NCBI GenBank assembly: GCA_965221105.1
Contig: OZ244871.1
Coordinates: 511,648-575,647, forward strand
Reading direction: 5' to 3'
Length of the DNA: 64,000 bases
Source of the DNA: Pseudomonadales bacterium
GTDB lineage: Bacteria > Pseudomonadota > Gammaproteobacteria > Pseudomonadales > GM7GCV1
Shown here piece by piece: positions 7,941-46,676 of this stretch. The notes beneath the pieces are model-generated. The model saw only the letters and a program-made list of their open reading frames with translations. It did no database searches and was not told where the DNA came from. Positions within the stretch are counted from its first letter, which is position 1; the number at the start of each line of letters is the position of its first letter. Made by a program: the position numbers and the translations under genes.

Positions 7941-8573
7941 ATGACAGAACTATTCGACATTATCATTCGTTGGCTACACCTGGTATTCGGTATTACCTGG
8001 ATCGGTATGCTTTATTACTTCAACTTTGTGCAGGGTGGATACTTCAAGCAGGCTACCCCTGAGGGTCTGGCGGATGCCAAGGCGAAACTGGCTCCGAGTG
8101 CACTCTGGTGGTTCCGCTGGGGCGCGATGCTCACCTTCCTCACCGGCCTTCTTCTGCTTGAATTTGTGTGGCGCAACAACTTTTTCAACGATTTCATCGT
8201 CGTCGGCGCGCTTATGGGCACACTGATGTTCCTGAATGTCTGGCTGGTTATCTGGCCAAATCAGAAGATCGCTTTGGGCATGGTCGAGGGTGATGGGCCA
8301 GCCGCAGCAGGGAAGGCGCTGCTCGCATCTCGCACCAACACCCTGTTCTCCGGCCCTATGGCCTTTGGCATGCTGGCTGGGGCTCACTATCCAGGTCAGG
8401 GCTACGGCACTGGTGTGGGCGGGGCAGATTTGTGGATTGCCATTGCCGTTGTTGCCGTCCTGGAGGTCAATGCACTGGCGGGCAAACAGGGGCCTCTCAC
8501 CACAGTAAAGGGTGTGATCTGCAGCAGCTTTGCGCTCACTGCGGCAATGATCGCTCTACTGGTTCTGCTTTAA
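7941..8573 (+). CDS. Integral membrane protein, PuuD N-terminal-domain-like (urate hydroxylase family membrane module)
   Basis: ATG 7941 is preceded by ggagg (7931..7935). WLHLVFGITWIGMLYYFNFVQGGYF motif and several TM segments. Confidence 0.65.
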   Translation: MTELFDIIIRWLHLVFGITWIGMLYYFNFVQGGYFKQATPEGLADAKAKLAPSALWWFRWGAMLTFLTGLLLLEFVWRNNFFNDFIVVGALMGTLMFLNVWLVIWPNQKIALGMVEGDGPAAAGKALLASRTNTLFSGPMAFGMLAGAHYPGQGYGTGVGGADLWIAIAVVAVLEVNALAGKQGPLTTVKGVICSSFALTAAMIALLVLL

Positions 8574-8594
8574 GCAGGAGCTCGTCGACGGATG

Positions 8595-8620
8595 GGAGGT
8601 GGCATGGCCACCTCCTTCTG
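8595..8620 (+). terminator. Candidate rho-independent terminator
   Basis: ggaggtggc-atg-gccacctcc is a perfect 9-bp stem, followed by ttctgt, 22 nt after the stop at 8573. Confidence 0.45.
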
Positions 8621-8690
8621 TCCGGGATATCCGATCCGGAATTTCACACACCTGGTAAGTACACATCGACCATGTTCGACAAAATCGAAT

Positions 8691-8942
8691 TCATAAAACG
8701 TAACTACTCGCACCCTTCTCCTGCTTGATCATGTCGGCGGCGGTGCCGTTGAGGGCGATCTGGATGGCGGTCAGCGGGTTGTAGCCCTGGTTGGCCATGG
8801 ACTGGAGATAGCTGGAGATTCGGCAGTGCGGGCAGGTCGTGATCTCGGCCTCGACCGTCAACTCGCGGGTCTCGGCGCTCATCGCGCCGTCCGCACACAG
8901 CGCCTCGAAGCGCGCTGTGTGCGCGTCGAACTCCGAGCACAA
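8691..8942 (-). pseudogene. Carboxymuconolactone decarboxylase / AhpD-like family, 5'-truncated or frameshifted
   Basis: ARFEALCADGAMSAETRELTVEAEITTCPHCRISSY fits the CMD-family core (K/ETRELxxxA...CxxC). The frame opens without an ATG (only TTG 8942). An ATG at 9036 lies in another frame. Confidence 0.45.
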
Positions 8943-9109
8943 CGACGCCGTGTTGACCGTCGCCTTGGAACCACACTATGCGGTGCCCATGACCCTGTGT
9001 GATCATGAAACGCACACACCAGAGAACCTCTTTCATATGGAGTCAAGGGTGGGGGTGAGTAGTTACCATAAAACCTTTCTGTGACCCAGGCTTTATGGGG
9101 CCTATCTGA

Positions 9110-9484
9110 TTATCCTTCAGTACCGGTGGAGACAAAAATCCATTCAAATATTTCGATCCGGATTTTACCTCGGCGACCGCCCGCAACGGCTGGTATTGTC
9201 ACGGCAGTCCCTTTATTGGCATGCACAGCTGTTGGGAGAATGTCTTTTCTCATGGAGGGCAGGATCTGAAGCCGGAGACCTATTGTGTCGATGTGCACGA
9301 AATTATTGATGCCGGCCCGGATACACTCATAGTGCTGGCACACTACACTGGCGATTCAGTGCGCTCGGGCGGACACCACAGAATCCAGGTGGCCCATGTC
9401 TGGACCTTCAAAAACGGGCGCATCAAGGAATTTCGGCAATACACTGACACCTACCATATGCAGCACTTTGACGAGATCGCGTAA
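9110..9484 (+). pseudogene. SnoaL-like / NTF2-fold protein, N-terminally truncated
   Basis: C-terminal signature RIQVAHVWTFKNGRIKEFRQYTDT. The frame is open from the stop at 9107 but has no start codon before ATG 9221, so the usual N-terminal helix is missing. Confidence 0.5.
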
Positions 9485-9507
9485 TTGTATGGTCTGGATG
9501 TGCTCCC

Positions 9508-10293
9508 CTATCCAGGCAACTTGAGCTGCCTGGATACTCTGCCACCCGGACTGCCATCGGAAAGCCAGGTCTGTTCAACCAGCGACACCTGCTCCGCGCC
9601 AAACAGTATCAGGCTGGTCGCACGGGTTCCGAATACATTGCCGTGAAGCTGCACCGGCGGAATGAATATTGACGATAAAACATGCTCAAGTTCCTGGGGA
9701 ATACCGGTTTTTGGAAGTTCCCGCAGGTCGGTCCGGGATGTGTCTCGCATCAACTCAATCAACCGGTCAATATCGATCCGGGATGCATTCTGAAGATAGT
9801 GCTCAATCATCTGGCTGCCGCGTGACATCTTCGGCCACTGCTGATCTTGGGGACCATTACTGATACTGGTCACACCATCATCCAACAGGCGCGGCTCCGA
9901 TTGCAGTGTGCCGCAACTGTAGAGTACTCCAGGGAGGCCAAACAGCAGATTGAACGGATTGTAGTCATCACACTTCTCGGTCAGTCGCCCAGCCAGTTCC
10001 GCCAATGCTTCGGGCCTGGTATGCAGTGCTTCAGTAACCAGTGCACCCCGGCTTCTGCTTTGACCGAGCGCTGCCTGTCCCGAACGGATATTGGTCACGG
10101 CGGCGACAACACCGGTATTGGCGTTGAATCCCAGCCAGGTGCCTCCGGCCTGCATATCCCGCCCGGCGACAATGGGGGAATTTTTCCACCGTTTCAGGGT
10201 GTCAGAGGGTCTGTGAAAAAACTCGTCGCGATTCGCGGCGACAATTAGCGGGTAATCCGTGCGAAGATTGCTCGCAATGAATAGAATACACAT
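9508..10293 (-). CDS. NRDE-family protein (TANGO2/DUF833-like)
   Basis: MCILFIASNLRTDYPLIVAANRDEF carries the eponymous NRDE motif, then GGTWLGFN. 261 aa. Confidence 0.85.
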   Translation of the reverse strand: MCILFIASNLRTDYPLIVAANRDEFFHRPSDTLKRWKNSPIVAGRDMQAGGTWLGFNANTGVVAAVTNIRSGQAALGQSRSRGALVTEALHTRPEALAELAGRLTEKCDDYNPFNLLFGLPGVLYSCGTLQSEPRLLDDGVTSISNGPQDQQWPKMSRGSQMIEHYLQNASRIDIDRLIELMRDTSRTDLRELPKTGIPQELEHVLSSIFIPPVQLHGNVFGTRATSLILFGAEQVSLVEQTWLSDGSPGGRVSRQLKLPG

Positions 10294-10456
10294 TCCGGTG
10301 GACTATGCGGAGACGGGTTCCGGTCTGCAAGACATCTGAATTTCCACTGCTGCCTGTTGCGGACCTGCAGTGTACAGGTGATACCGCGGCGTGTCCCTGA
10401 CATAAGTGCACTCTCACCTGTACCGATTTTGTGACCCTACCCATGAAGCAACTTGT
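10220..10456. repeat. Direct repeat copy A (237 bp): NRDE 5' end, intergenic region and first codons of the MBL gene
   Basis: Aligns base-for-base with 11585..11821 with about 11 mismatches by eye. Its MBL start reads MKQLVFTEF* (10443..10472), a dead stub. Confidence 0.9.
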
Positions 10457-10673
10457 GTTCACGGAATTTTGAAACCATAGATGGATAAAAAGGAGGTGAC
10501 TACTCACCCCCCTTGTCGTCATAGGAAGGCGATTCTATGATGTCGTAGTTACGGAACACTCTATTAAATTGCACAGTGGCGGCGGTAGGGTACTCAGTAC
10601 CGAACTGCTGGAAATGTGATAGTACGAGAAAAATCAACAGGTGAGCTCGATCCGCCTCTCGAAGTTCATTAGG

Positions 10674-11000
10674 TTAGCGGACAATTACCTGCGTGATCCG
10701 TGCCATGGCCGCGATGATCGCATCAGGGGCTCTTTCGATAAATGTGGCACGACGTTGCTCGAAGTCAACGGATTTGATCTGGTACGCCAGGGTCGCCCCT
10801 TGAGTCTCTGTCCCCTCAAGTACCACTTCCAACCGTATATTTCGCGCGGTACGTGTAATCGGGGCCACGACTGCGAATTTCGTATGTTCGTTAAATGCCT
10901 TTCTCGAAATCACATACGCTGGCCTGCGCTTTGTGATTTCCTTACCCACGCTTGGCTCAAAATCCAGCCAGATGATATCTCCGCGATCAGGAATGTACAT
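10674..11000 (-). CDS. mazF: Type II toxin, PemK/MazF-family endoribonuclease
   Basis: 108 aa. MYIPDRGDIIWLDFEPSVGKEITKRRPAYVIS...VVAPITRTARN is typical of MazF/PemK. TAATG overlap with the upstream antitoxin. Confidence 0.9.
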   Translation of the reverse strand: MYIPDRGDIIWLDFEPSVGKEITKRRPAYVISRKAFNEHTKFAVVAPITRTARNIRLEVVLEGTETQGATLAYQIKSVDFEQRRATFIERAPDAIIAAMARITQVIVR

Positions 11001-11251
11001 TAAAGCTCTGTACCAACGCTCGGTGCATCAATCCATTCGCGGTCTTCGTTAGTGGTTGCAAGATTTTCTTTGGGGCTACCCGCCAGCAACTCTTCCAGTG
11101 TTAATTCACTTTCAACTGGAGTCAGAACGACTGTGCCTTCCACTACCCGGGCATCGAGTGCATCCCCGATCTCCAGTCCAGCCTCCTGCAGGATGGCAGC
11201 TGGGATGATGGTGCCCGCCGAGTTGCCCCATTTACGTAGATTTGTGTGCAT
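11000..11251 (-). CDS. mazE: Type II antitoxin, AbrB/MazE/SpoVT family
   Basis: 83 aa. LRKWGNSAGTIIPAAILQEAGLEIGDAL is the swapped-hairpin AbrB motif. Confidence 0.9.
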   Translation of the reverse strand: MHTNLRKWGNSAGTIIPAAILQEAGLEIGDALDARVVEGTVVLTPVESELTLEELLAGSPKENLATTNEDREWIDAPSVGTEL

Positions 11252-11269
11252 GATGTCACTTCCTGAAAT

Positions 11270-11282
11270 TAGACATTGTCTA
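11270..11282. promoter_or_regulatory. Putative MazE operator (6-1-6 palindrome)
   Basis: tagaca-t-tgtcta, 19 nt upstream of the mazE ATG and embedded in an AT-rich promoter-like stretch (tatagac). Confidence 0.4.
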
Positions 11283-11584
11283 TACTACCACAAAGTTATA
11301 TGGTGTCTCACACGGAATATCTGCACATACTGGCGATATTTACCGCGAATTGCCTGCAGTTTCGACTGGGTATATACATCAGGACGACACTGCGGTTTCG
11401 AGACTCCGCGCTGAAATGCGCGCCAAGCTTATCCGGGGTTGCCAAGACTCCCCCTGTCCTGGATTACCCAGCGGAATCTGGTCGATGCACTGGTGGGCAG
11501 CAGGGATATCGAAGGCGATATTGCCGCGCCCGGCCGGGGATTTCTATCAGCTTGTTCGTGATAACACCGGCGCACAGGATCAAG

Positions 11585-11821
11585 AACTCGTCGCGATTCG
11601 CGGCGACAATCAGTGGGTAATCCGTGCGAAGATTGCGCACAATGAATAGAATACACATTCCGGTGGACTATGCGGAGACGGACTCCGGTCTGCAAGGCAT
11701 CTGAATTTCCACTGCTGCCTGTTGCGGACCGGCAGTGTACAGATGATGCCGCGGCGTGTCCCTGACATAAGTGCACTCTCACCTGTACCGATTTTGTGAC
11801 CTTACCCATGAAGCAACTTGT
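11585..11821. repeat. Direct repeat copy B (237 bp); carries a dead NRDE 5' stub and the live MBL start
   Basis: See copy A. On the minus strand 11585..11658 encodes MCILFIVRNLRTDYPLIVAANRDEF and then diverges (truncated duplicate of the NRDE gene). Confidence 0.9.
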
Positions 11822-12455
11822 TGTCCCTGTCACCAACTTCCAGCAGAACTGTACCTTTGTACTCTGCGAGCATACCGATACAGCAGCCATTATCGATCCG
11901 GGCGGAGATACAGACAAACTCCTGACCATTGTCGCCAAACACCAGCTCAACGTCGACAGGATTCTGCTGACTCATGGGCATCTGGATCATGCCGGCGGGG
12001 CAGCTATTCTCAAGGAGCGCCTGAGTGTTCCTATTATCGGCCCACACAAGGACGACGCCTTCTGGCTCGATCAGCTGCCACAGCAGTCTTCAATGTTGGG
12101 TCTCATGCCCCCTATTGAGAGCTTTACCCCGGATCAATGGCTTGAAGATGGGCACACTGTCACTGTGGGAACTATCGAATTCGAGGTCATTCACTGCCCC
12201 GGCCATACCCCGGGGCATGTGGTCTACTTTAATCGCAAGGCGAACTGGGCTCAGGTTGGTGATGTCCTTTTTGCAGGATCCATTGGTCGCACAGATTTCC
12301 CCAGAGGTAATCTTGAAGATCTGACCGACTCCATTCGAGGCAAGCTTTTCCCCCTTGGAGACAACGTCACATTCATTCCCGGTCACGGTCCCTCTTCTAC
12401 CTTCGGCCAGGAACGACGCCACAACCCTTTTGTTGCCGACCATCGGTACGGCTGA
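11808..12455 (+). CDS. MBL-fold metallo-hydrolase (glyoxalase II-like)
   Basis: MKQLVVPVTNFQQNCTF...LLTHGHLDHAGG (HxHxDH motif)...HCPGHTPGH. The track start 11796 is possible, but ATG 11808 fits family N-termini. Confidence 0.85.
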   Translation: MKQLVVPVTNFQQNCTFVLCEHTDTAAIIDPGGDTDKLLTIVAKHQLNVDRILLTHGHLDHAGGAAILKERLSVPIIGPHKDDAFWLDQLPQQSSMLGLMPPIESFTPDQWLEDGHTVTVGTIEFEVIHCPGHTPGHVVYFNRKANWAQVGDVLFAGSIGRTDFPRGNLEDLTDSIRGKLFPLGDNVTFIPGHGPSSTFGQERRHNPFVADHRYG

Positions 12456-12570
12456 ACACCTCACAGATCAAATATCAGAGGCCTGGGGCCGGGGTCTATT
12501 ATCAGAGGTGAGAAAGTGCGCTGAACGCACGTACACCGAGCACTCCGGGAAGACCTGTATGCGCGCCTGC

Positions 12571-12747
12571 TCATTGTCGCTGGTACTGTGAGACGGTCTC
12601 ATCCAACTCCACCCAGTCCTGTTTCGTCTCACACCAGCCATGCAGTTGGGGCTTAAACCAGGATGTGTCATCAAGAGTGCCGTTTTTCAGGATGACCACT
12701 GTCGCCACCTCCATGTCCAGTCGCCCCAATCCCGGAGGCCACACTAT
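12571..12747 (-). pseudogene. GFA-family (glutathione-dependent formaldehyde-activating/CENP-V-like) C-terminal remnant
   Basis: VVILKNGTLDDTSWFKPQLHGWCETKQDWVELDETVSQY matches the GFA C-terminal signature (GTLDD..W..P..H.W...K..W). The frame is closed by a stop at 12748..12750, and the zinc-binding Cys region is not recoverable in one frame. Confidence 0.5.
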
Positions 12748-13089
12748 TCACTGCGGCATTGATATCCGCAGTGTCTTGATGTCGGCATGCCACAGATCGA
12801 ACGACCGCGTGTGACGGGCGGTTGTGCGACAGGAGCGCGTGCAGATTGAGCATCCTGTCTCGGTTGAACCCGATTTCATCCGCGTGGCCGATGGGCAGCT
12901 CAATCTTGAACCACAGGACCGGGTCCATCGCCTGATCACATGCGGGCTGTCCGTTTTGGATAGAGCGGCCCGATCCTGAGCACACCCTGCTCCAGCGGCC
13001 TGTGCCCTCTCAACAGGCAGGGTGTTGGGGTGTTGACAGAAGCCGTCCTCGTTGTTCGCACGGGTGCGCCGCGGCAGGCGTGCGTCCGG

Positions 13090-13745
13090 CTACTGGATGG
13101 TGCCGTCGGTCTCGCCCCCTTCGCTGACCCGCGCGCAGCCCTTGCCGCCCATGAACAGGAAGTAGGCACTGCCTGCCGTTGCATACCCACGTCCACGAGG
13201 CTGGTAGATGACCGGTACCACCAGCTCTCCGGGGCCTTGATTGGGGTTGCTGGCGTTGCGGTTGCTCCAGATGTGGGCACCAGCCTTCGGCCGCACCTCG
13301 ACGATGTTCTCGCCAAGCTCACCGCCGGCGAAGGTAAGGGAATCTCTCCCGCCAAGCACATTCTGCCAAGCATTTGCGTTCACTTCCGGCGTGCGCCACT
13401 CCCAATCGGTGAACTCGCCACCAGTGCGGTATTCATTACGTGTGCTCAGAAATTTGACAGTCGTGAAACTCTGCCGCGTTACGTTGGGATTACTAGACGA
13501 CAGGATGACCTTGAAGCGGCCCAGCGTGGCGGAATCGCCGCAGCCATCCACGACTTGCGAAACCGATGCAAGCGTGACTGTGCAGGTGCTGGTGGTGCAT
13601 TGAGGAGGGGGAGGTGGGAGTTGCGCCTGCGCGGTACCTGCAAGCAGCAGGAAGCAGAGCATCGCGGCCGCGGTCGCCGCGAGGGCTGTCAGTCTAGCGG
13701 GGGGGGGGGGGGGGGTACATCACACTGAACTTTCAAGCTGAACAT
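13090..13745 (-). CDS. Secreted hypothetical protein, phase-variable candidate (currently frame-OFF)
   Basis: ATG 13745 sits 7 nt after AGGAGG (minus strand gcAGGAGGatcaacgATG) and is followed by MFSLKVQCDV and a C17 tract. With 17 C the frame stops after PPPPPPLD. With 18 (or 15) C it continues ARLTALAATAAAMLCFLLLAGTAQA|QLPPPPPQC into the 190-aa ORF 13090..13662, which has a signal-peptide look. Confidence 0.6.
13699..13715. repeat. Homopolymeric G17 (C17 on the coding strand)
   Basis: Counted directly: ...tctagc g(17) tacatc... Confidence 0.97.
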
Positions 13746-13944
13746 CGTTGATCCTCCTGCTGATGTCCTGTGAACATCGAGCCAATTACCAGCCAAAAGG
13801 TATAACACAGATTGGGCGGAATGCCAATACTTACTTGGCCTTGCCCAATATGAAGTGAGTCTGAAGGGAGGGCTTGTTTCTAACATGAAATGAGTCTGAA
13901 CTTTCGGGTATTGCCCCCATGAGAGCGGCACTCTGAGCGCTCTC

Positions 13945-14682
13945 ATGACCCTGACTGACCTGACCACCATCGAACACCTGGAGCGATGTCTGGATGGCTC
14001 CGAAACCTGCACCTACGAACTCCCCGGCACCACGGACGAACGCTCCAGCTGGATCCAGACAACCCTGGTGCAGTTCCGCTACACCAGCCTGGGCACAAGC
14101 GACAGAGGCGTCGTGGTCCGCTCCCTGCTGAAGGTCAGCGGCTCCTCCCGACACCAACTGACCCGGCTGATCCGGCAATACGTGACACCCGGCCGGTGCA
14201 CTCGCCGACAGCGCACCACGCGGGGGTTCTCCAGACGCTCTACCCAGGCGGATGTCCTGCTGCTTGCCGAGCTGGACAGGCTGCACGACACGCCCTGCGG
14301 CGCTGTCATCAAGAAGGAGTGCGAACGTGCCCTGGCACAGGGGGATGACCGTTGTGAGCGCCTGGCCGCGATCTCAGTGAGCCATATCGACACTCTGCGC
14401 ACATCCACCACTGACCAGCGCCAGCGCCGCCAGTTCACCACACCGCACTCGAAACCCGCACCCATTGGCGAACGCCGCAGGGCATCCCGGGGGTCTCTGC
14501 GAGTGGATAGGGTGCACCAGGGCTCCCGGTGCCACAACGATCAGGGAGCGTCCACCGAAGCGGATTCCGGAACAGTGGGATGCTCTCGGCGAAATGCGTG
14601 CGGTGGTGCAAATACTTCAGTGTCGATCAAAACCGCACAAGTTGGAGGCCTCCAGGAAGGAGCGGGTCATGCCACTAACTGA
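13945..14682 (+). mobile_element. DDE (rve-type) transposase/integrase, N-terminal fragment only
   Basis: LTDLTTIEHLERCLDGS...WIQTTLVQFRYTSLG...LLKVSGSSRHQLTRLIRQY...LLAELDRLHDTPCG...ISVSHIDTLR...IGERRRA...LRVDRVHQG is collinear with the N-terminal HTH region of transposases usually annotated 'integrase catalytic region'. Similarity stops at ~14530, just where the DDE core should start. IS family not determined. Confidence 0.6.
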
Positions 14683-23051: not shown

Positions 23052-23531
23052 CTATGCGGCTTCAATCTCATAGCTGTGACTGATTTCCACGCCCGCTGCC
23101 TCGAGCATAATCGAAGCTGAACAGTATTTCTCCGCGGACAACCTGACAGCCCGCTTCACCTGCGATTCCTTTATTTCAGTGCCCTTTATCCGGAAGTGCA
23201 AATGGATACAGGTAAACACCGCAGGAACGGCATCTGCCCGTTCAGCGGAGACATCGCAGACGCAGTCTCGTACATCCTGACGACCCTTACGCAACATTGA
23301 CATCACGTCAAAGGACGAACACCCGGCGACACCCAACAGCAGGAGTTCCATGGGTCGGACTCCCAGGTTTTCGCCACCTTGATCAGGTGGCCCGTCAATC
23401 ATGAATTCGTGGCCGGTGCCGCTTGCGGCTTTAAATGCGGCACCTCCCTGCCAGGTTACAGTTCCGTTCACAATTTCAATCCCGAAAAAAATGGGATACA
23501 GAGAGTAGCAGAAAGCCGGAGATTCGGGCAC
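23052..23531 (-). CDS. OsmC/Ohr-family peroxiredoxin-like protein
   Basis: GVRPMELLLLGVAGCSSFDVMSMLRK...AEKYCSASIML with the two conserved Cys. The true start is probably downstream of 23531. Confidence 0.8.
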   Translation of the reverse strand: MPESPAFCYSLYPIFFGIEIVNGTVTWQGGAAFKAASGTGHEFMIDGPPDQGGENLGVRPMELLLLGVAGCSSFDVMSMLRKGRQDVRDCVCDVSAERADAVPAVFTCIHLHFRIKGTEIKESQVKRAVRLSAEKYCSASIMLEAAGVEISHSYEIEAA

Positions 23532-23865: not shown

Positions 23866-24096
23866 TCACACTTTGAGGTCGTTTAGGCATCGCTGCCAAC
23901 TCGCATGGACGAAGGCAACATGCTCAGAAGCCATCATCAATCGTAAGATTGAGCGCGATAAAAAGAGAGGCAATGATGAGGTGGATTCAGGAAACACCGA
24001 AACGCGCTGTAACATCTTGTGTGACATCCAGCCACGCAAATTATGCGGGAAAAATATAACTAAAACGTGCACTTATGACGAAATGTTTTAATCCCC

Positions 24097-24324
24097 CTAC
24101 CGTAACCAGAGGTTACGCGCACGGGCACCAGACATGGGGCTTCGCTGTGCCCGGATAGACCAGGAGGTGGGCAGGGCGCATACTGGATGGCAGCGACTGT
24201 CCACAGGATGACGTAGAACCAGAAGTGTTTGCCAAGATGAAGGACCGCGCACCACTCACCGGTGCGGGCAGCCCCTTCTTCTCCGGGCGCGAAGTGGAAA
24301 TCAATCAATTCCGCGAGAGCGCGG
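24097..24324. repeat. Direct repeat copy 1 (228 bp): 5' end of an AAA/P-loop ATPase gene
   Basis: Aligns with 32041..32268 with about 13 mismatches by eye; the last ~110 bp are identical. The + strand encodes ...FAKMKDRAPLTGAGSPFFSGREVEINQFRESA. Confidence 0.9.
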
Positions 24325-24563
24325 AGCGTGCCCAGGACGGCGGCGACGTGCCCGTGGGGCAGGGAGCGGACAATGTTGAAGGCCTCATCCCGCCCTATCA
24401 TGGGTTCATCCTTGAGCACCCGACGCAGGGCATCGATCTTGGCCTTGGGCCACTTGGAGAGATTGGCCAGGGTGCGTTTCTTGACCTGTCCGTCCTCGCG
24501 CCAGCCTTCACGCAGGAGGATGGCAGGTGGGGAGGAGCGGTTGGGGACTGTGTCCATGTACAT
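24325..24563 (-). mobile_element. IS1634-family transposase, N-terminal ~80 codons only
   Basis: MYMDTVPNRSSPPAILLREGWREDGQVKKRTLANLSKWPKAKIDALRRVLKDE...FNIVRSLPHGHVAAVLGTLR. Similarity ends abruptly at the junction with repeat copy 1. Confidence 0.65.
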
Positions 24564-25012
24564 GGGAATGGCAACGCATGCAATAAAAGCAACACAAATA
24601 TTATCAATTACATGGGAACAATAATCAGTCTCACATACACAGAATCCCCATGCGAATCAACCACTTGACGCGACATTGAGCGAAAATTTTGGGGGAAGTT
24701 CATATATGACCCGCCCCGGTGTGCACGAGCACTTTTCGATCTGGAAGAGACGGGCTGCTACCATATATCCGACCTGTCAATGGGGCTCTCTGCGCCCCTC
24801 GCCCTGATGGAGAGTCGCATCGGTGTGTCCTGATCAGACTATCGACCTCGACAGTGAACACCCTCAGGTGTCCCCATCGGGTCTGTGAACTGCTCAGGTT
24901 CTCACTCCGGCGGTGTGCCTTGTCTGCCATCACGATTCAGTACTCTCACGCACCCCTGGTGGGTTCAATTCATCTGTGTTGTCTGAGTGTCACCCCCTTC
25001 ATACGGGGTGTC

Positions 25013-25150
25013 CTAAAGCCCAAGGTCCTCGCGGATGGAGGGCGCGAGGATCGCCAGTATCTGTCGATCAACAAAATTGACGACACAGACAACCATTAGC
25101 ATGCCGAGCACATACCGGGTGTAGCCGAGGGAATATGGCGGTGCTTTCAT
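25013..25150 (-). pseudogene. MFS transporter 5' fragment (duplicate of the start of 28179..29432)
   Basis: MKAPPYSLGYTRYVLGMLMVVCVVNFVDRQILAILAPSIREDLGL*. About 137 bp are homologous to 29335..29470; it ends at a stop where the full copy continues SDTQIG. Confidence 0.85.
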
Positions 25151-25222
25151 GCTTTCAGGATTTTTGCCCTCGGACTGTCCAAAAATTGGGGAGCACCTCA
25201 CATCATGAGGATCCAACAACAA

Positions 25223-28045
25223 TTAGAGACGAGCACTGACCCTGACACCCCAAGCGCGAGGCAGACCCGACGTCCTGAAGCCAAAGCCGCTCGCACCGGC
25301 CGGAGTAGACTGTAGTGCATAGTTGACGTATTCCTCGTCCCCAGCGTTCTCAACAAACCCTTGGACAGAGTAGCGTTCGGAAGGCGAGTCCCAAGTCAGG
25401 CGCACATTCGCCACACTATATGCTTCCTGCACTTCATAAGGATTGTTGTCCGCAGCGAGGAAGGTATCATCTTGATAGGAGCCATCCAACTGGGCTGTGA
25501 GGCGTCCCCGATCGCCTAGGTCGTGGAAGTAACGAATAGCGTAGTTTGCCATCCGCGCGGGCGTAGCGAGTTCTCCACCATCCAATTCTTCAGCGATAGA
25601 TTTCAGTTCCGAGTCCAAGGTGCCCAGACCAAACACGAACTCCCAGGAATCATGGGGCACATACGTCAGTTCTAGCTCAAGCCCGTATATGTCGGCACTA
25701 CCCGCGTTGAAGTAAACATTCGTGCTACCCACGACGGAACCAGGGTCAGGAATCGTCACCTGTGCCTGCAGGTCTTCAAAGTCCTGGTAGAACACAGCGA
25801 GGTTGGCGCGCAGCCGATTATCAAACCATTCTGTTTTTCCACCTAGTTCATAGGAGGTTACCTGCTCTGAATCGGCAGGGCCCGTGGCGGCTACAGTGGT
25901 TGAGCCGCTGGCCGAGACAGACCAAGCACCACTCTTATAACCGGTAGACACTTGCGCGTAGTACAGCGCATCGTCAGTTGGCGTCCACTCAAGCGAGCCA
26001 CGCCAAGTGAATTCTGTCTCGTCGATATCACCGATTTGGTCGAAAAAGGCACGCGGGCTGTATGACCCACCCTTGGGGTCTCCGCTGAAATTGCTGCCAC
26101 GGTCATAGCGCGTCATCACACGCTCCTCCTGAGTGATACGCGCACCGACAATACCGCGCAGATTGTCAGTGAGATCAAAATTCAGTTCACCGAATGCCGC
26201 CAGCGATTCGGTTTCAGTCGCCGCATCGTAGGCAATGAAGTTTATCTGATCGCGTCCAAGGTAAATTAACAGGTTAGCGTCTTTTTCGTCGGTGTAGTAA
26301 TAGGCGCCAGCCACCCAACGCAGTCCTTCATCACCGCCGGAGAGGCGCAACTCTTGAGAGAACTGCTCTGACTCAAAAGATTTGATGGTATTCAGGTAGC
26401 CAACAGCTTCCGTATGGGCCTCAAAGTCCTGCCCGACAAGATCGTCGTACTCCTCAAATGCGCTAATGGACACAAAATCTGCCCAACCCAAATCGCCGGT
26501 GAACTTCAGGTAGCCGCCGAATGCATTGTATTCTTGGGGAATACTGTGAAACACTGAGAGGCCCTCGTCTGCTTTGGCGTCAAAAACGGACGCGCCTGCA
26601 CCGTTGAAACAGCGATCATTCAAGAAAGCATCCACACCGCATGCTCTACTCGCATAGACCGACCCTTCTGCGGCATCTCTCGCATCATCTATTTCGGCAG
26701 CAGTCGCTCCCGGCGGCAAAGCAGCTTCTGCCGCATCCTGTGCAGCGGCTACTTCCGCCCGAAAAGCAGAGGTTGGGATCTCATCAGTCGAGAACAACCC
26801 TGAGAAGCGATACATTGAAGCGGTGCCATTGGATTCCGCATGCTTGAGTTTGGCCTCCGCCATCCAGTCGTCGTGTAGGTCAACCTGCAAGGTGGCCCGG
26901 AGAGATTGAACGTCGGTTTTGCCCCATCTCGAGTCATTAAAGTCAGGGTTTAAGTTTTTCTGGTAGCCGTCATCCGTGTTTGATTTGAAGGCAATTCGGC
27001 CTCTCACGTCATCGCTGATTGGCCCGCCCACAGCACCTTCCGCAATTACTTGGCTGTTCTGGCCGACCTGAACAGACGCATAGCCATCAAATTCATCGCT
27101 GGGCTTGCGAGAAACAAAATGGACCAGACCGCCCGTAGTGTTGCGGCCAAACAGCGTGCCCTGCGGCCCGCGCAGCACCTCTATACGCTCGAGGTCGAAA
27201 ATCTGGCCGGTGACTGAGGCGTTCGCACCTTGGTAAACCTCGTCGATATAGGTGCCCACAGAAGGTTCATTGATGAAGCTGAAATCAATACTGGTGATAC
27301 CGCGAATGGTGAGAAACGGAGGTCCTGACGGCCCTAACAGGGAGGTGAACGTAAAGTTGGGCACCTGGGCGGACACATCCAGGCCATTTTCGAAGCCCAA
27401 AGATTCGATCGAATCGCCGCTGAAGGCGGTGACAGAAACGGACACATCCTGCAAGCTTTCTTCGCGCTTGCTGGCGGTGACGATGATCTCTTCAATGGTG
27501 GGCCGGTCGGACACGTCACTTTGCGATTGCGCCAAGGCTTCCGCGCCAAATAAGCCGGACACCAGTCCTGCCAGTGCGGCAAACAGTCGATTCCTGTTTA
27601 CTCCAGTATTATTTGCCCTGTCTTTTTTCATGGCACTCCCCGTATTCGTCAACTGACCATGCGCTGAAATACTCAGCACGGTTGCGTCGCTGAACGTCGA
27701 GGTCAACCCGGTACCCGCAAGCAGGATATCCACACCCTGTTGCAGCGTGTGCCTCCCTGTCAAGGCATTGGCGGACTTGTCGCGGACCACATCGTCCGGG
27801 AAAACCAGCGTCAGGTCAGCCTGTTCAGCAAACTCCATGAGTGCACTGTGAACTGGCTGCCGCGGAACATTGAAGTCGAACTCCGCCTCCGCCGCGCTCG
27901 CCCGCACAGCAAAGGCAAAACCCAAAATCAGCAAGGCTAGGCTTGCAGCCCACCTGCCGGCAGCGCGTCCTGTTTGCACTCGCTTAACTGACGAGTCAGG
28001 ACGACTTTTCCCTGAGAACCAGTAAAAAAAATATTTCCCCTCCAT
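25223..28045 (-). CDS. TonB-dependent transducer (FecA/FpvA-type, with N-terminal STN signalling domain)
   Basis: 940 aa. Signal peptide, then STN domain FDFNVPRQPVHSALMEFAEQADLTLVFPDDVVRDKSANALTGRHTLQQGVDILLAGTGL, plug IEEIIVTASKREESLQDVSVSVTAF, barrel end LPRAWGVRVSARL. Collinear with the TBDR at 10..2331. Confidence 0.92.
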   Translation of the reverse strand: MEGKYFFYWFSGKSRPDSSVKRVQTGRAAGRWAASLALLILGFAFAVRASAAEAEFDFNVPRQPVHSALMEFAEQADLTLVFPDDVVRDKSANALTGRHTLQQGVDILLAGTGLTSTFSDATVLSISAHGQLTNTGSAMKKDRANNTGVNRNRLFAALAGLVSGLFGAEALAQSQSDVSDRPTIEEIIVTASKREESLQDVSVSVTAFSGDSIESLGFENGLDVSAQVPNFTFTSLLGPSGPPFLTIRGITSIDFSFINEPSVGTYIDEVYQGANASVTGQIFDLERIEVLRGPQGTLFGRNTTGGLVHFVSRKPSDEFDGYASVQVGQNSQVIAEGAVGGPISDDVRGRIAFKSNTDDGYQKNLNPDFNDSRWGKTDVQSLRATLQVDLHDDWMAEAKLKHAESNGTASMYRFSGLFSTDEIPTSAFRAEVAAAQDAAEAALPPGATAAEIDDARDAAEGSVYASRACGVDAFLNDRCFNGAGASVFDAKADEGLSVFHSIPQEYNAFGGYLKFTGDLGWADFVSISAFEEYDDLVGQDFEAHTEAVGYLNTIKSFESEQFSQELRLSGGDEGLRWVAGAYYYTDEKDANLLIYLGRDQINFIAYDAATETESLAAFGELNFDLTDNLRGIVGARITQEERVMTRYDRGSNFSGDPKGGSYSPRAFFDQIGDIDETEFTWRGSLEWTPTDDALYYAQVSTGYKSGAWSVSASGSTTVAATGPADSEQVTSYELGGKTEWFDNRLRANLAVFYQDFEDLQAQVTIPDPGSVVGSTNVYFNAGSADIYGLELELTYVPHDSWEFVFGLGTLDSELKSIAEELDGGELATPARMANYAIRYFHDLGDRGRLTAQLDGSYQDDTFLAADNNPYEVQEAYSVANVRLTWDSPSERYSVQGFVENAGDEEYVNYALQSTPAGASGFGFRTSGLPRAWGVRVSARL

Positions 28046-28178
28046 TGTGAGTCGGCCTGATTCGCTTAATCAGATAATGCCACTGTCATTTCCTGATCTC
28101 TTCGCGCGCGCCCGGCCCCCTCGCGTGCAGCGGCACAGTCCGCTTGCCAGCCACCAAACCGGGCACATGATACTTCAG

Positions 28179-29432
28179 CTATTTTCCCACCCGGTCGGCT
28201 ACGGCACGGAGGTCGTCCTTCAGGGTGCGCGACGCGCGGAAGTAGAAGTAAAAACTGGCCAGGTAGACGAGATTGCAGAGCAGCAGTGACCAGCGCAGGG
28301 ACTCGACATCGCTTATCTGCGAGCTTGCCTGCAGAACATCGCTCAAAACTCCGACAGTCGTCGGGCCGAATACCAAGCCGATAATACTGGTGATGAACAA
28401 GAGCAACGCCGACGCCCCGGCGCGCATCGAGAGCGGTGCCATGGTCTGGGTCATCGCCAAGGTCGGTCCGATGCTCAGATTTGATAGAAAGGTCGGAAGC
28501 ATGTAGACGATCAAGACCATCCAGAGGGCATCCACGAGGAACATAGCAGCACTGACTGGCACCGAAATCAGCAAAGCCCAGGCTGGCAACAGCATGTACC
28601 AACGAACATCCCGCGCCCCTAGTTTGTCGCCGATGAAACCGGAGAGCAGGGTGCCGGCGCCGCCGAACAGGCCGATGATCAGCCCGAGCGCCGTCCCAAC
28701 TTCACCAGTACTCATGTCGTGTGTGCGCATGAGAAAAGATGGCATCCACGCGATTAAACCGTAGCCCACGAAACTCTGGGTGCCGGAACCTAGGGCAATA
28801 CAGCGAAAGGTCTTGAAACCCCACATGGTACGGATCACGTCGATGAACGGAACGTGATGGGCTGCAGATGGACGCTTCTCCGAATAACCGCGCGGTGGTT
28901 CGCTGACGGTCAGTTTCAGAATCACAGCGAGGATGATGCCGGGCACGCCAACGACGAAAAACGCGTTGCGCCAGCCAAAAAACTCGTTGATCCAACCGCC
29001 TGCGAGATTGCCGAGCAGGATACCGATGGAGACGCCGAGGGCGTAGATGCCGAGCGCGGTGGCACGTTTATCCGGTGCGAAATAGTCGGCGATGAGGGAG
29101 TGCGAAGGTGGCGAACCTCCAGCCTCGCCAATACCAACACCGATGCGCGCAATCAGGAGATGTAGGAAGTTCTGGGCGAATCCGGAGAGCGCGGTCATCA
29201 GGGACCAGATGCCAAGGCAGATCGAGATAATGTTGACCCGGGAATACCGGTCTGCGAGTCGTGCAATGGGTATCCCTAAGGTCGCGTAGAAGATGCCGAA
29301 GGCAACGCCGGAGAGGGTGCCGATCTGGGTATCCGAAAGCCCCAGATCCTCGCGGATGGAGGGTGCGAGGATCGCCAGTATCTGCCGGTCAATGAAATTG
29401 AATACATAGACGACCATCAGTATGCCGAGCAC
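28179..29432 (-). CDS. MFS transporter
   Basis: 417 aa, 12-TM-like. FNFIDRQILAILAPSIREDLGLSDTQIGTLSG...IARLADRYSRVNII. The ATG present in the truncated duplicate is CTG here, so the start is GTG 29432 or unclear. Confidence 0.85.
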   Translation of the reverse strand: MLGILMVVYVFNFIDRQILAILAPSIREDLGLSDTQIGTLSGVAFGIFYATLGIPIARLADRYSRVNIISICLGIWSLMTALSGFAQNFLHLLIARIGVGIGEAGGSPPSHSLIADYFAPDKRATALGIYALGVSIGILLGNLAGGWINEFFGWRNAFFVVGVPGIILAVILKLTVSEPPRGYSEKRPSAAHHVPFIDVIRTMWGFKTFRCIALGSGTQSFVGYGLIAWMPSFLMRTHDMSTGEVGTALGLIIGLFGGAGTLLSGFIGDKLGARDVRWYMLLPAWALLISVPVSAAMFLVDALWMVLIVYMLPTFLSNLSIGPTLAMTQTMAPLSMRAGASALLLFITSIIGLVFGPTTVGVLSDVLQASSQISDVESLRWSLLLCNLVYLASFYFYFRASRTLKDDLRAVADRVGK

Positions 29433-29511
29433 ATACCGCGTGTAACCGAGGGAATAGGGTGGTGCTTTCAGGTGACTCGCCCCATGTCGACAGAGAGCTG
29501 CACGTCCCCGG

Positions 29512-30023
29512 TCAGGTGGTGCCCGGGAGCTGCTGCAATGTCATCGCAAACTTCACGCCCCACAGGCGCGGCCTGGTTACGCCCATATTGTGTTTTCCCT
29601 GTCTTTTGTCATGTCACCCCCCTATTCATCAACTGTTCATTCGCTGAAATGTTCTGCACGTTTACGCTGCTGAACATCGGGGTCAACCCGGTACCCGCAA
29701 GCAGGATGTCTGCGCCCTGCTGCAGCGTATGCCTCCCCGTCAAGGCGTTGGCGGACTTGTCGCGAACCACATCGTCCGGGAACACCAGCGTCAGGTCGGA
29801 CTGTTCAGCAAAATCCATGAGCGCACTGCGAACCGGCTGCCGCGGAACATCGAATTCGAACTCCGTGTCCGCTGCGCTCGCCGACGCAGCAAAGCCAAAA
29901 CCCAAAATCAGCAAGGCTAGGCTTCCAGCCCGCCTGCAGGCAGCGAGTCTTCTTTGCACTCGCTTAGCTGACGATTGAGAACAGCTTTTCCCTGAGGACA
30001 GGTGAAAAGGCTTCCTCCCCCAT
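29512..30023 (-). pseudogene. Internally deleted TonB-dependent transducer (signal + STN domain joined to the last ~15 codons)
   Basis: 29585..30051 is ~85-88% identical by eye to 27598..28073 (STN: FEFDVPRQPVRSALMDFAEQSDLTLVFPDDVVRDKSANALTGRHTLQQGADILLAGTGL). There is a 2-nt length difference after the ATG (frameshift). 29533..29575 encodes RPRLWGVKFAMTLQ, the TBDR C-terminus (cf. PRLWGVKLAMTLQ at 2290..2331). Confidence 0.85.
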
Positions 30024-30047
30024 TGTGGGGAGGCCTGATTCTTTCGA

Positions 30048-31136
30048 TCAGAGACTGCTGAGGAGCACGCGACTCTCGCCATCGAACTCATGTGCGATAT
30101 CGAAGTTAACGTGCAGCGACGAGAGCAGTGCTTCAACATCGCCAACCCGAAAGCGGCCGGAGAGGGCGCGGGTTTTCAGCGATTCGTTGAGGAAAACAAA
30201 TTCGACTGTCGTATATCGCTCGACCTCCTTGAGCGCTTGTTCGAGCGGCTCCGAGCGAAAGACGAGGCGACCATCGCGCCAAGATAGCTTGAGCGCGATC
30301 TCGTCGTTCGAAACCAATTTTTTGACTGGCTCGGCGGTGCCCAAGCTCACCAACTCACCCACCGCAACAATGTTGTCGGCATCCTTGTCGCCCAATTTCC
30401 CAAGCAAGGGTGGCAAGGCCAAGTTGTCCATTTCATTGCTGTCGCTGGCACGCGGCGACGGCGCCATGGTTGTGTGCTTGCCAATGGCCACCTTGCCTTC
30501 GGTCACCAGGAGCTCGACATGGTGATCATCGGCCATTGCCACCACGAATTCCGTGCCAACCGCTTGAATGACTTGATTGCCGGCGAGCACGGATAATGGC
30601 CTGCTACGGTCTTCGGCGACCCGCACGAGAATCTCGCCTTGTGCCAGACGCAGCAATCGTTGATCTGGTGTGAAAGTGACCCCGAGTTGGCTGTTGGTGT
30701 TCAACACCACTTCGCTGCTATCGGGAAGCAGCAGGGTCTTCTGCTCGCCGATCGCGGTTGCGTACTCGGCTGATGTCGTTGGCGGCGCTTTATCGCCACC
30801 GGAAGTCGGCAGAATAAGTCCGACGGCTATCAGAACCGCCAAGGCGCCAGCCGCAGCGAGACCTTGGACCCACGGCCGATAGCCAAAGCCGCGCTTGACC
30901 CGATCATGCTCAGACCCGCGCGGAAACAGCTCGGCCAGCCGTGCAAGCGTATCGACCCTATCCCAGACCGAGGCGACTTCCATGAAGGATTCCCGATGTT
31001 CGACGCTCTCGTCCAGCCAGGCGCCAAGAGCCGCCTCGTCGCGTTCACTCAATTCCCCCTCATCCAATTTAAGCACCCAGCGGCTCGCGGCTTCGAGCGA
31101 TTCGTCATCGTGCGAGATCGACACGACGTTGTTCAT
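30048..31136 (-). CDS. fecR: FecR-family anti-sigma factor / transmembrane sensor
   Basis: AASRWVLKLDEGELSERDEAALGAWLDESVEHRESFMEVASVWD, a single TM (LAAAGALAVLIAVGLIL) and a periplasmic FecR domain. ATGA overlap with the sigma factor gene. Confidence 0.9.
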   Translation of the reverse strand: MNNVVSISHDDESLEAASRWVLKLDEGELSERDEAALGAWLDESVEHRESFMEVASVWDRVDTLARLAELFPRGSEHDRVKRGFGYRPWVQGLAAAGALAVLIAVGLILPTSGGDKAPPTTSAEYATAIGEQKTLLLPDSSEVVLNTNSQLGVTFTPDQRLLRLAQGEILVRVAEDRSRPLSVLAGNQVIQAVGTEFVVAMADDHHVELLVTEGKVAIGKHTTMAPSPRASDSNEMDNLALPPLLGKLGDKDADNIVAVGELVSLGTAEPVKKLVSNDEIALKLSWRDGRLVFRSEPLEQALKEVERYTTVEFVFLNESLKTRALSGRFRVGDVEALLSSLHVNFDIAHEFDGESRVLLSSL

Positions 31137-31720: not shown

Positions 31721-32040
31721 AAGCCCGAACTTCTCACGAAACTATCGAGAGCGCCAGATACATATGCTGTAACTCTTTGACATATAAATCTAAAGAAGCA
31801 CGGCATAGATTTCCCCCCACTGGCGCACACTGTACCTTGACGAAGCCGGTGTACGCAACCTTCGGCGTTGTCCAACGCGACACGATGTTCAATGGAGAGG
31901 AGTGAATCTACGACGAATCGAGGTCGATTTCAGCGACGGCGCGACGCTGCTCGACGAAATACGGACCTAAGGCCCGAGCGCTGAGATCGGCAGAACAATC
32001 ACGCCGTCAGCGCGCTGGTAGCCATAGCCGCTGCCAACCA

Positions 32041-32268
32041 CTACCGTAAGCAGAGATTACGCGCACGGGTGCCAGACATGGGGCTTCGCTGTGCCCAGAT
32101 AGACCAGGAGGTAGGCAGAGCGCACGCTGGATAGTAGCGACTGTCCACAGGATGACGCAGAACCAGAAGTGTTCGCCAAGATGAAGGACCGCGCACCACT
32201 CACCGGTGCGGGCAGCCCCTTCTTCTCCGGGCGCGAAGTGGAAATCAATCAATTCCGCGAGAGCGCGG
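32041..32268. repeat. Direct repeat copy 2 (228 bp)
   Basis: See 24097..24324. Confidence 0.9.
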
Positions 32269-32477
32269 GGCAACTCGCCAAAGGCTTCCGCGCCAACAAC
32301 ACGCTGGTCTTTGAAGGGCCTCCGGGCTGCGGTAAGACCGCATTGCTTGACCAGATCACCGCTGATGTGAACGCCTACCCCGCTGACAGTGCACCGAATG
32401 GAGCGACTCGAAGGATGATCAGGCACGGTGGATTATCGGTAAGTCATCATGAAAAAAGCCTCAGCACCGACTTTTGA
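32169..32477 (+). pseudogene. P-loop ATPase (AAA-like) N-terminal fragment
   Basis: FFSGREVEINQFRESAGQLAKGFRANNTLVFEGPPGCGKTALLDQI (Walker A GPPGCGKT). It degenerates after ~70 codons and stops at 32477. Confidence 0.6.
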
Positions 32478-44879: not shown

Positions 44880-45355
44880 ATGAGCGACAAGACCAAATCC
44901 ACATTCGCCCCACGCGTCCGCGCCATGCCGGTACTGTCGATGATGATGCGCATGGCCGAGCTTTGGGGATACCGCGTCCACAACCCGTACAAGAACGCCA
45001 AGCGATACAGGATGGAGCCGAAGGAGCGTTTCCTCACCGTCGAGGAAATGGTGCGGCTCAACGCCGTGATCGACGCGATCCCGCGCTACGGCCCCGATTG
45101 CTCGTATCTCTTTCCCGCCCGCCGGCGCGGACCATCGACAACATCGCCTCGCAATGGAACCGCATCCGCGACGAGGCTGGATTGTCCGGGCTGCGGCTTC
45201 ACGACCTTCGCCACTCCTTGGCATCCACTGCCGCCATGAACGGCTTGGACATGGTGGCTATCGCCAAGCTGCTCGGTCACGCGCTGGTCGAGACGACGGA
45301 GCGGTGCGTCTCTCTGTCCGACCAGTCGGCCACTGACGCCGCTCACTGTGATTGA
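44880..45355 (+). pseudogene. Tyrosine recombinase (phage-type integrase) remnant
   Basis: AELWGYRVHNPYKNAKRYRMEPKERFLTVEEMVRL (frame 1), then after a frameshift near 45130 ...WNRIRDEAGLSGLRLHDLRHSLASTAAMNGLDMVAIAKLLGH..TTER. The N-terminus and part of the catalytic domain are missing, and the catalytic Tyr context is degraded (RCVSL). Confidence 0.75.
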
Positions 45356-46407: not shown

Positions 46408-46676
46408 AAGTACATCTCTGTCACTGCGCTCGTGTCCGGTCCCGAAGGTGTCGTACAGCCCGCCATCGCTGGGAGGCGATGATTGACACCCATCATCAAC
46501 TGGGATGGAATCGGTCGCCCGGCGGCCAGATGCGCTACTGGGCTCGCTCGGCGCGGCACGGGGTGCTTGGTGGCATCGGCTTTGGGTCAGTGACCTTTCA
46601 TTTGACGACCTGCCGGGTCTCGCCCCCGCGGATGTGCTGGCTCCTCGCCCCAAGTGGTGTTACAAGCCAGCCACAC

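Follow-up and report, generated by a model that had tools for sequence, protein, structure and literature searches.

A mazEF cassette between 240-bp direct repeats of two divergent gene starts: a probable insertion with long target duplication in a Pseudomonadales bacterium

Introduction

How can a small toxin-antitoxin cassette that carries no recognizable mobility gene settle between two chromosomal genes and leave both of them intact? The question is raised by a locus in a 64,000-nucleotide stretch of DNA from a Pseudomonadales bacterium (assembly GCA_965221105.1, contig OZ244871.1, positions 511,648 to 575,647 of the forward strand), hereafter the window, in which a mazEF module lies between a gene of the NRDE/TANGO2 family and a divergent gene for a metallo-β-lactamase (MBL)-fold hydrolase, and is bordered on each side by a copy of a 240-bp direct repeat made of the two gene starts.

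Insertions with long target duplication were described by Furuta, Abe & Kobayashi 2010 (PMC2853133), following Nobusato et al. 2000 (Gene 259:99), for restriction-modification units shorter than 20 kb that lack mobility genes and lie between unique direct repeats of 45-423 bp. The left and right copies of those repeats are 93-100% identical (e.g., 417/423, 384/412, and 368/393), align to one copy at the empty site, and in many cases extend over a start or stop codon, which leaves the target gene intact; the presence of an integrase or a tRNA is what sets integrative elements apart from this class. As a basis, the same authors suggested a property common to all restriction-modification types, such as double-strand breakage, and they proposed for these units a life cycle of amplification, release, and reentry via the repeats, which was never shown (PMC2853133). 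Long target duplication has also been reported for "other DNAs" (PMC3457768).

Results

The mazEF Insert Lies Between Two Copies of the NRDE and MBL Gene Starts

Repeat search, MAFFT alignment, and self-BLAST agree in describing positions 10217-10456 and 11582-11821 as one direct repeat pair of 240 bp that aligns without gaps, with 12 mismatches (95.0% identity; self-BLAST E = 1.7e-105). The initial annotation had given slightly shorter copies, 10220-10456 and 11585-11821, as ~95% identical with ~11 mismatches, and pairwise alignment gives exactly 11 in those 237 bp. In both copies, the alignment shows an abrupt end of similarity at either boundary. Each copy contains codons 1-25 of the minus-strand NRDE gene (ATG at 10293 and 11658), the entire 149-bp NRDE-MBL intergenic region, and 14 nt of the 5′ end of the MBL gene on the plus strand (ATGAAGCAACTTGT; ATG at 10443 and 11808). 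The intact NRDE and MBL genes are found only on the outer sides of the copies, while the inner sides are stubs (Table 1), resulting in an a[R]X[R]b topology; the open reading frames (ORFs), the Pfam matches, and the alignment all agree with the contents that had been read from the letters alone. We also used a second, independently assembled genome of the same species, ~98% identical across the region (loci L001 and L092; hereafter the sister strain), in which the NRDE protein is 99% identical (P0001) and the MBL hydrolase 100% identical to those of the window. The NRDE stub is called as 64 aa in the window and as 54 aa in the sister strain (L001). The repeat occurs twice in the 64-kb window and twice in 41 kb of the sister strain and is, at that scope, not a high-copy sequence.

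Between the copies lies an insert of 1125 bp (10457-11581). In agreement with the initial annotation, which had placed mazF, mazE, and a tagaca-t-tgtcta operator in ~1.1 kb, we found Pfam matches for both proteins and a perfect palindrome. A repeat search found no terminal inverted repeats at the ends of the insert (10457 and 11581), and neither the ORFs nor Pfam nor a HMMER scan revealed a transposase, an integrase, an excisionase, or a remnant of one in it, the only family-bearing ORFs being mazE and mazF. Within 8000-14500, no Rfam match was found that could represent a tRNA or tmRNA target. With its 240 bp, the duplication is, as had been noticed at the outset, far above the length produced by transposases.

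A scan for consensus promoters and terminators gave counts at the level of shuffled sequence, with no signal above background, and a hairpin with a 7-bp stem, present in both copies within an NRDE motif beside the left repeat boundary, was given no weight.

Table 1. Coordinates of the repeat copies, the flanking genes, and the parts of the insert in the window
Feature	Position	Strand	Evidence and remarks
Intact NRDE/TANGO2-family gene, 261 aa	9508-10293	-	Pfam PF05742, E = 2.4e-53, profile 1-255 of 257; first 25 codons within left copy
Left copy of 240-bp direct repeat	10217-10456		95% identity to 11582-11821, no gaps
MBL stub ORF, MKQLVFTEF-stop	10443-10472	+	Departs from MBL sequence after nt 14 (sequence and alignment)
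Flank A of insert, 217 bp	10457-10673		Outside conserved mazEF unit (homology stops at 10673-10700); no Pfam match, no family-bearing ORF
Solo remnant of mobile-element end, 64 bp	10496-10559	+	Same family as MITE 8700-9066 and 2116-bp element of L092
87-bp stretch just downstream of mazF	10583-10669		77% identical to L001 19915-19998 (sister strain)
mazF/chpBK-like toxin gene, 108 aa	10674-11000	-	Pfam PemK PF02452, E = 7.8e-21, profile 2-103 of 109
mazE/chpS-like antitoxin gene, 83 aa	11000-11251	-	Pfam MazE_antitoxin PF04014, E = 1.1e-9; NCBIfam ChpS 2.4e-13 (closest model)
Predicted promoter/operator region of mazEF	11252-11300	-	Upstream limit of conserved unit; putative function
Flank B of insert, 281 bp	11301-11581		No Pfam family; fastest-evolving part of insert between strains (8 differences)
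NRDE stub ORF, MCILFIVRNLRTDYPLIVAANRDEF...	11464-11658	-	25 genuine codons, then unrelated sequence; Pfam TANGO2 residues 1-26 only
Right copy of 240-bp direct repeat	11582-11821		Repeat search, alignment, self-BLAST
Intact MBL-fold hydrolase gene, 215 aa, GloB-like	11808-12455	+	Pfam Lactamase_B, E = 8e-37; first 14 nt within right copy

The Two Genes Are Adjacent, Without mazEF, in a Distant Lineage

In a collection of 5.8 billion proteins, the sister strain is the only source of NRDE homologues more than 52% identical to that of the window, and a scan of species-representative genomes with the NRDE protein gave a best match of 45%. The lineage at 52% is a Cellvibrionales metagenome-assembled genome (MAG) of sponge-metagenome origin, present in five assemblies, in which an MBL gene (product 68% identical to that of the window) is adjacent to the NRDE gene in divergent orientation, with a spacer of 87 bp and no mazEF. 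The 12-bp spacing given by the gene calls of this MAG results from an over-extended ORF; the real start (MCILFI...) restores 87 bp. Comparison with orthologous loci had been suggested as a check by the initial annotation, and this nearest other lineage provides it for the gene order; no related genome with the repeat but without mazEF, which had been named as evidence against an insertion, was seen. Alignment of this outgroup with the window is limited to the 78-bp NRDE part, which is 79.5% identical to both copies, the spacer being too distant to align. None of the other 79 NRDE loci that we fetched has this MBL neighbor, so the NRDE-MBL adjacency is specific to this clade. Since the pair is adjacent without mazEF in the outgroup, and since each copy of the repeat holds both gene starts contiguously, these comparisons support a target that would once have been a contiguous NRDE-spacer-MBL segment.

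The Structure Is Shared by Two Strains

The sister strain has the same arrangement as the window, with both repeat copies and variants of its own (L001). We thus compared the left and right copies of both strains in a four-way alignment. Six of the 12 left-right differences are common to the two strains, and so predate their split, and at nine other sites one copy of one strain differs from the other three. At site 10352, both copies of the window have G and both copies of the sister strain have A, so that the copies must either have converted one another or have changed in parallel. When the differences were polarized with the outgroup, derived changes were found in the left copy (R8S and a TTT codon) as well as in the right copy (A7V and a CCA codon); naming either copy as the original or as an import was for this reason rejected.

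Because both strains have the structure and share differences between its copies, the insertion event predates the strain split. The 5% divergence of the copies is no clean clock, since old clustered differences, young differences, and conversion are mixed in it. The initial annotation had taken this divergence to suggest that the event is not recent: the conclusion holds, on the ground that two strains share the structure, while the 5% figure cannot be kept as a measure of age.

The Insert Carries a mazEF Module That Looks Functional

The mazE stop codon overlaps the mazF start codon by one base, at position 11000. Beyond its Pfam match, the toxin is recognized by the NCBIfam models MazF (7.6e-24) and ChpB (1.2e-17), in both cases under the equivalog cut-off, and matches solved MazF structures, including 7bye and 1ub4, with E values from 1e-17 to 8e-19. 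Since the scores lie below the equivalog cut-offs (83.8 vs. 120 for MazF and 50.1 vs. 101 for ChpS), the two proteins are best regarded as members of the family rather than as orthologues of E. coli mazEF or chpB. Directly upstream of mazE lies a perfect 6-1-6 palindrome, TAGACA-T-TGTCTA (11270-11282), which overlaps a conserved promoter-like stretch; the aligned upstream regions of mazEF homologues have ..GTGGTAGTATAGAC..GT..AA.TT in common. MazE would repress its own promoter at this palindrome. Members of the MazF family are endoribonucleases.

The organization resembles that of E. coli chpB (chpS-chpBK) and mazEF, in which the antitoxin gene likewise comes first and overlaps the toxin gene stop to start; an AbrB/MazE-type antitoxin of 83 aa, a toxin of 108 aa with the PemK/MazF fold, and a promoter palindrome complete the likeness. 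The window proteins differ from the E. coli systems in scoring below the equivalog cut-offs. Between the two strains, we counted 1 difference in the 252 bp of mazE, 3 in the 327 bp of mazF, 8 in the 281 bp of flank B, and 0 in the promoter/operator region. The MazE protein is identical in both strains and MazF has two amino acid differences, both conservative. The module looks functional.

The mazEF Unit Has Relatives in Mobile and Defense Contexts

To delimit the module, we used a comparison set of five loci whose MazF is 81-90% identical to that of the window. DNA homology to these relatives (76-87%) spans from 11300 to 10673-10700 and never goes beyond; its start at 11300 is seen in L007, L008, L090, and L091. 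Because the homology always ends at the same edges, the portable unit corresponds to 10675-11300, i.e., ~626 bp comprising promoter/operator, mazE, and mazF. One relative, in a Halieaceae MAG (L090), is inside a Tn3-family transposon and adjoins an ArdC-like gene; another (L007) stands beside IS66, a KAP-NTPase/QatB pair (Qat defense genes), an integrase, and a Tn3 transposase; further relatives are found immediately upstream of MksB/MksE. Given that its relatives occupy such mobile and defense contexts, the mazEF unit is a habitual passenger of mobile DNA, with a horizontal origin. When plasmids and phages were searched with the insert, the sole match was to the mazEF coding part, at 66%, in a Vibrio plasmid.

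Two observations were made on the relatives themselves. In the loci that we read (L007/L008 5750-9002, L089 130-1725, and the contigs of P0123), mazEF homologues lie 10-70 bp upstream of defense genes. These are KAP-NTPase/QatB genes in one lineage and MksB/MksE in another two, which suggests that the unit is repeatedly recruited to the head of defense operons. In the Halieaceae MAG, the homologous mazEF (81% amino acid identity) lies between 113-bp direct repeats that are 90% identical (L090 4230-4342 and 5889-6001). We rejected these repeats as a second case: the topology differs from that of the window, since the left copy falls within an intact ArdC-like (MPTase-PolyVal) gene whose sequence runs on undisturbed to either side, and the right copy is a detached piece of the ArdC-like gene.

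The Flanks of the Unit Are Orphan Sequence With Mobile-Element Debris

About 500 bp of the 1125-bp insert is orphan flank rather than mazEF unit. No homologue of the flanks was found among plasmids and phages, metagenome scans with a 30-mer of the repeat and a 20-mer of flank B gave no match, and neither did viral-contig scans with flank B and with the solo element end. When the open frame spanning flank B was used in a full HMMER scan, the only matches were the 54-aa call of the species itself and long repetitive proteins, with no informative homologue. In flank A, we found the solo remnant of a mobile-element end. Its motif GTGACTACTCACCCCC is one of only three matches in the window, its local alignment with a nearby MITE (miniature inverted-repeat transposable element) scores 52 as compared with ~25 for the other three orientations or ends over the same region, and it is 79% identical over 48 bp to the end of a larger element of the sister strain (L092). 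Such an element-end remnant fits a donor rich in mobile elements. The sister-strain counterpart (L001 19915-19998) of the 87-bp stretch downstream of mazF sits ~100-185 bp upstream of a TonB-receptor gene, and the stretch could belong to an intergenic repeat dispersed in this genome.

The two elements that share ends with the remnant have features of their own. At 8700-9066 lies a MITE-like element of 367 bp, with ends GTAACTACTCGCACCC and GGGGGTGAGTAGTTAC and an 8-bp target duplication, CATAAAAC. This MITE is missing from the sister strain, and because that strain shows a clean empty site, it was recently mobile. An IS66 identity, considered for its GTAA start and 8-bp duplication, was rejected since the real IS66 in L007 has other ends (GTAAGCGCC...), and no family is given here. 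In the sister strain, L092 10481-12596 is a 2116-bp element with the same ends as the MITE and an 8-bp duplication, CTATGCGG, of which 23052-23059 of the window is the empty site. It encodes a 131-aa ORF and a 358-aa Transposase_31/YhgA-like protein of the Rpn family (E = 3e-46), and no other recognizable transposase. A 95% identical copy of the Rpn-family gene lies at 45341-46578 of the window, without the element ends. Rpn proteins are now regarded as toxic nucleases or defense genes (PMC5350276, PMC10400941); finding such a gene within an inverted-repeat element bordered by a target duplication may merit attention.

Other Duplications and Islands in the Region

A second direct repeat pair, of 234 bp and 93.6% identity, is present at 24094-24327 and 32038-32271, also arranged as a[R]X[R]b. 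An AAA_16-like ATPase ORF has its 5′ end within the repeat, and the two copies enclose a 7.7-kb block with an extracytoplasmic function (ECF) sigma factor, FecR, a TonB receptor, an MFS gene, and a transposase-like fragment, the family of the latter being assigned by eye only, with no Pfam match. The sister strain has the left copy, and the locus obtained from it stops short of the right one, so that no empty site was seen. Inside the block, two TonB-receptor 5′ ends (27593-28080 and 29572-30058) are 83% identical and two MFS 5′ ends (25006-25149 and 29327-29470) are 87% identical, so that 25006-30058 resembles a receptor-MFS pair that was duplicated in tandem and whose two units then decayed reciprocally. 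In the sister strain (L092 1-9024), DruA (Druantia) and a 226-aa ORF, both missing from the window, are inserted between the receptor stub and the MFS gene. Just downstream of the MBL gene, 60 bp of the sister strain are replaced by a 1187-bp block (12698-13885) whose G+C content is 0.60-0.66, compared with ~0.53 nearby; a 190-aa ORF lies within the block on the minus strand (13090-13662), and a 19-bp direct repeat (13847 and 13882) marks its right junction.

Discussion

We propose, as the best explanation of this locus, that a ~1.1-kb mazEF fragment was inserted between the NRDE and MBL genes with duplication of 240 bp of the target, a reading that we hold to be probable though well short of certain. 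An insertion with target duplication had been put forward by the initial annotation, and it is supported by the a[R]X[R]b topology and by the finding that intact genes lie on the outer sides only. In this scenario, the donor would have been rich in mobile elements, and the fragment would consist of a self-contained unit of the chpB/mazEF type together with ~500 bp of flanking debris, including an element end. The target would have been the short spacer between the divergent NRDE and MBL genes, of which 240 bp of resident DNA were duplicated, most likely at the same time as the insertion and without a dedicated recombinase. Two routes can be envisaged: breaks in opposite strands ~240 bp apart, after which a captured linear fragment would be ligated to the long, filled-in overhangs, or a template switch of replication to the donor followed by a return to a point 240 nt upstream. 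As the duplicated block covers both start codons and the whole spacer, each gene would keep its 5′ end together with the control region upstream of it, and the duplicated control region would presumably keep both genes expressed; since both retain intact 5′ ends and control regions, the insertion would have been free of cost for the host. Afterward, the copies would have diverged, with occasional mutual conversion. Recombination between the 240-bp repeats would delete the cassette precisely, and death or arrest of the cells that lose it is a plausible cause of its persistence in both strains.

Several points weigh against this proposal. The searches of plasmids, phages, metagenomes, and viral contigs and the HMMER scan found no donor of the insert or its flanks, so that microhomology at the junctions cannot be assessed, and nothing was identified in this genome, neither enzyme nor pathway, that would carry out the duplication. 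The sole genome without the insert is distant (NRDE 52% and MBL 68% amino acid identity) and gives no nucleotide-level empty site, and the stabilization by addiction is something that we infer. The distribution of the differences also counts against it: five of the six old ones fall within the 77-bp NRDE-coding end (binomial P = 0.015), while the younger ones are spread evenly. As initially identical copies should diverge roughly evenly, this clustering needs either later gene conversion elsewhere in the repeat or an imported copy that was already divergent.

The latter possibility leads to another explanation, a Campbell-type event in which a small circle with mazEF and the 240-bp NRDE/MBL block recombined homologously into the chromosomal copy of that block. 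The circle could have looped out of a strain with the repeat-insert-repeat structure, in which case one repeat would be partly imported and the copies divergent from the start. Such an event yields the exact a[R]X[R]b topology, the imported copy could contribute to the six clustered differences that predate the strain split, and a cycle of release and reentry has been proposed for restriction-modification units (PMC2853133). It would, however, explain the spread of the structure rather than its origin, as an earlier event must have made the first duplicated structure; the plasmid, phage, and viral-contig searches found no circle, plasmid, or phage with the insert or its flanks, and a single crossover with a divergent donor should scatter differences over the whole repeat and not mainly at one end. 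We therefore consider this origin unlikely, if worth keeping in mind. At the other extreme, the idea that one copy is an assembly artefact, i.e., a collapsed or duplicated pile-up of reads, which the initial annotation had listed as fatal to its reading, has a negligible probability: the two copies differ at 12 positions, and the assembly of the second strain, on a contig of 2.81 Mb as against 2.77 Mb for that of the window, has both copies with substitutions of its own.

Two further explanations invoke a longer history. The insert could be what is left of an integrative element, either an integrase-bearing island or a prophage, that entered at the edge of the 240-bp block with its own replacement gene start(s) and then suffered deletions. 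Phage 21 and e14 integrate in this way at icd, carrying a replacement copy of the gene end, and such element-borne copies are typically a few percent divergent, which counts in favor of this explanation, as do the relatives of the mazEF unit that ride with integrases, Tn3, and IS66 and the mobile-element debris in the insert. Like the locus, these elements (phage 21 and e14 at icd, or tRNA islands) show long, slightly divergent repeats and a target gene that remains functional, but the window insert is only 1.1 kb long, with no integrase and no tRNA. No integrase, excisionase, or recognizable remnant is found in the 500 bp of insert that is not mazEF, no tRNA or tmRNA target exists at 8000-14500 according to Rfam, and decay must have erased all else while sparing both 240-bp copies and mazEF, which makes this history quite unlikely. 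Neither the integrase nor the tRNA by which Furuta et al. (PMC2853133) tell integrative elements from long target duplications is present. Alternatively, a larger segment with the spacer and a neighboring mazEF could have been duplicated in tandem and then trimmed by deletions, an alternative that is discussed in PMC3457768 and for which the window offers a parallel in the clear tandem duplication, with reciprocal decay, of its TonB-receptor/MFS pairs. This would take at least three events whose end points happen to spare both genes; in the vicinity of the two genes, self-BLAST found neither a further copy of the insert or its flanks nor a trace of one, and mazEF and its flanks are unrelated to their surroundings, the mazEF unit having been acquired horizontally. 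Such a series of events is highly improbable.

Returning to insertion with long target duplication, we compared the locus with the definition of the class by Furuta et al. 2010, which comprises repeats >30 bp, a single-copy empty site, an insert <20 kb without integrase, transposase, or phage genes, and a repeat that is not high-copy. The repeat is 240 bp long and 95% identical, the insert has 1125 bp with a 64-bp solo element end as its only mobile trace, and the cargo is mazEF, whereas the original screen was for restriction-modification genes. That restriction limits the original screen and not the mechanism, since later work extended the class to "other DNAs" (PMC3457768). The locus would belong to the described class, with a mazEF cargo and a repeat over two divergent gene starts. 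It shares with the published cases a short insert without mobility genes between long unique direct repeats, a repeat length and identity within the published range, a repeat that spans translation starts and leaves the target genes intact, and a cargo of the addiction type. It differs from them in that the cargo is a type II toxin-antitoxin module with an RNA-cutting toxin instead of a restriction-modification unit, for which the published suggestion of DNA breakage by the cargo as the driver would not hold, that the repeat covers two divergent gene starts at once, and that the empty site is visible only in a distant lineage. Our literature search found no report of a long target duplication around a toxin-antitoxin module, the reviews only cross-citing the class. 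Transposon target-site duplications also leave direct copies of the target on both sides of an insert, but they are typically <10 bp, with 19-26 bp for IS1630 as the longest quoted (PMC2853133), as against 240 bp here around an insert without terminal inverted repeats or transposase. Genuine transposition in this genome gave 8-bp duplications, as in the MITE and the L092 element.

What this locus means has to be read at the scale of a single instance, which does not reveal its mechanism and comes with no nucleotide-level empty site. Within that scope, the recombinase-free landing of small toxin-antitoxin cassettes in chromosomes is poorly documented, and the locus is a clean example that was assembled twice. 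It would also show how an insertion can be free of cost, as the duplicated block supplies two divergent genes with their start codons and their whole control region. The mazEF case fits a role of addiction in preserving such structures better than a role of the cargo in creating them: because MazF belongs to a family of RNases, addiction rather than DNA cleavage is more likely to be the property shared by the cargoes, and it would act via selection against loss through the flanking repeats. One may go further and regard long target duplication as a general route that is independent of the cargo; its products, inherently unstable through deletion between the flanking repeats, would then last mainly if they carry an addictive cargo. 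As a whole, we regard this wider reading as quite doubtful. If it is true, the mazEF example, with a toxin that cuts RNA and not DNA, would show that DNA-breaking cargo is unnecessary, and a circle of 1365 bp, made of the cassette and one copy of the repeat, could be looped out and enter naive relatives by homology, which would provide toxin-antitoxin modules with a recombinase-free mobile form.

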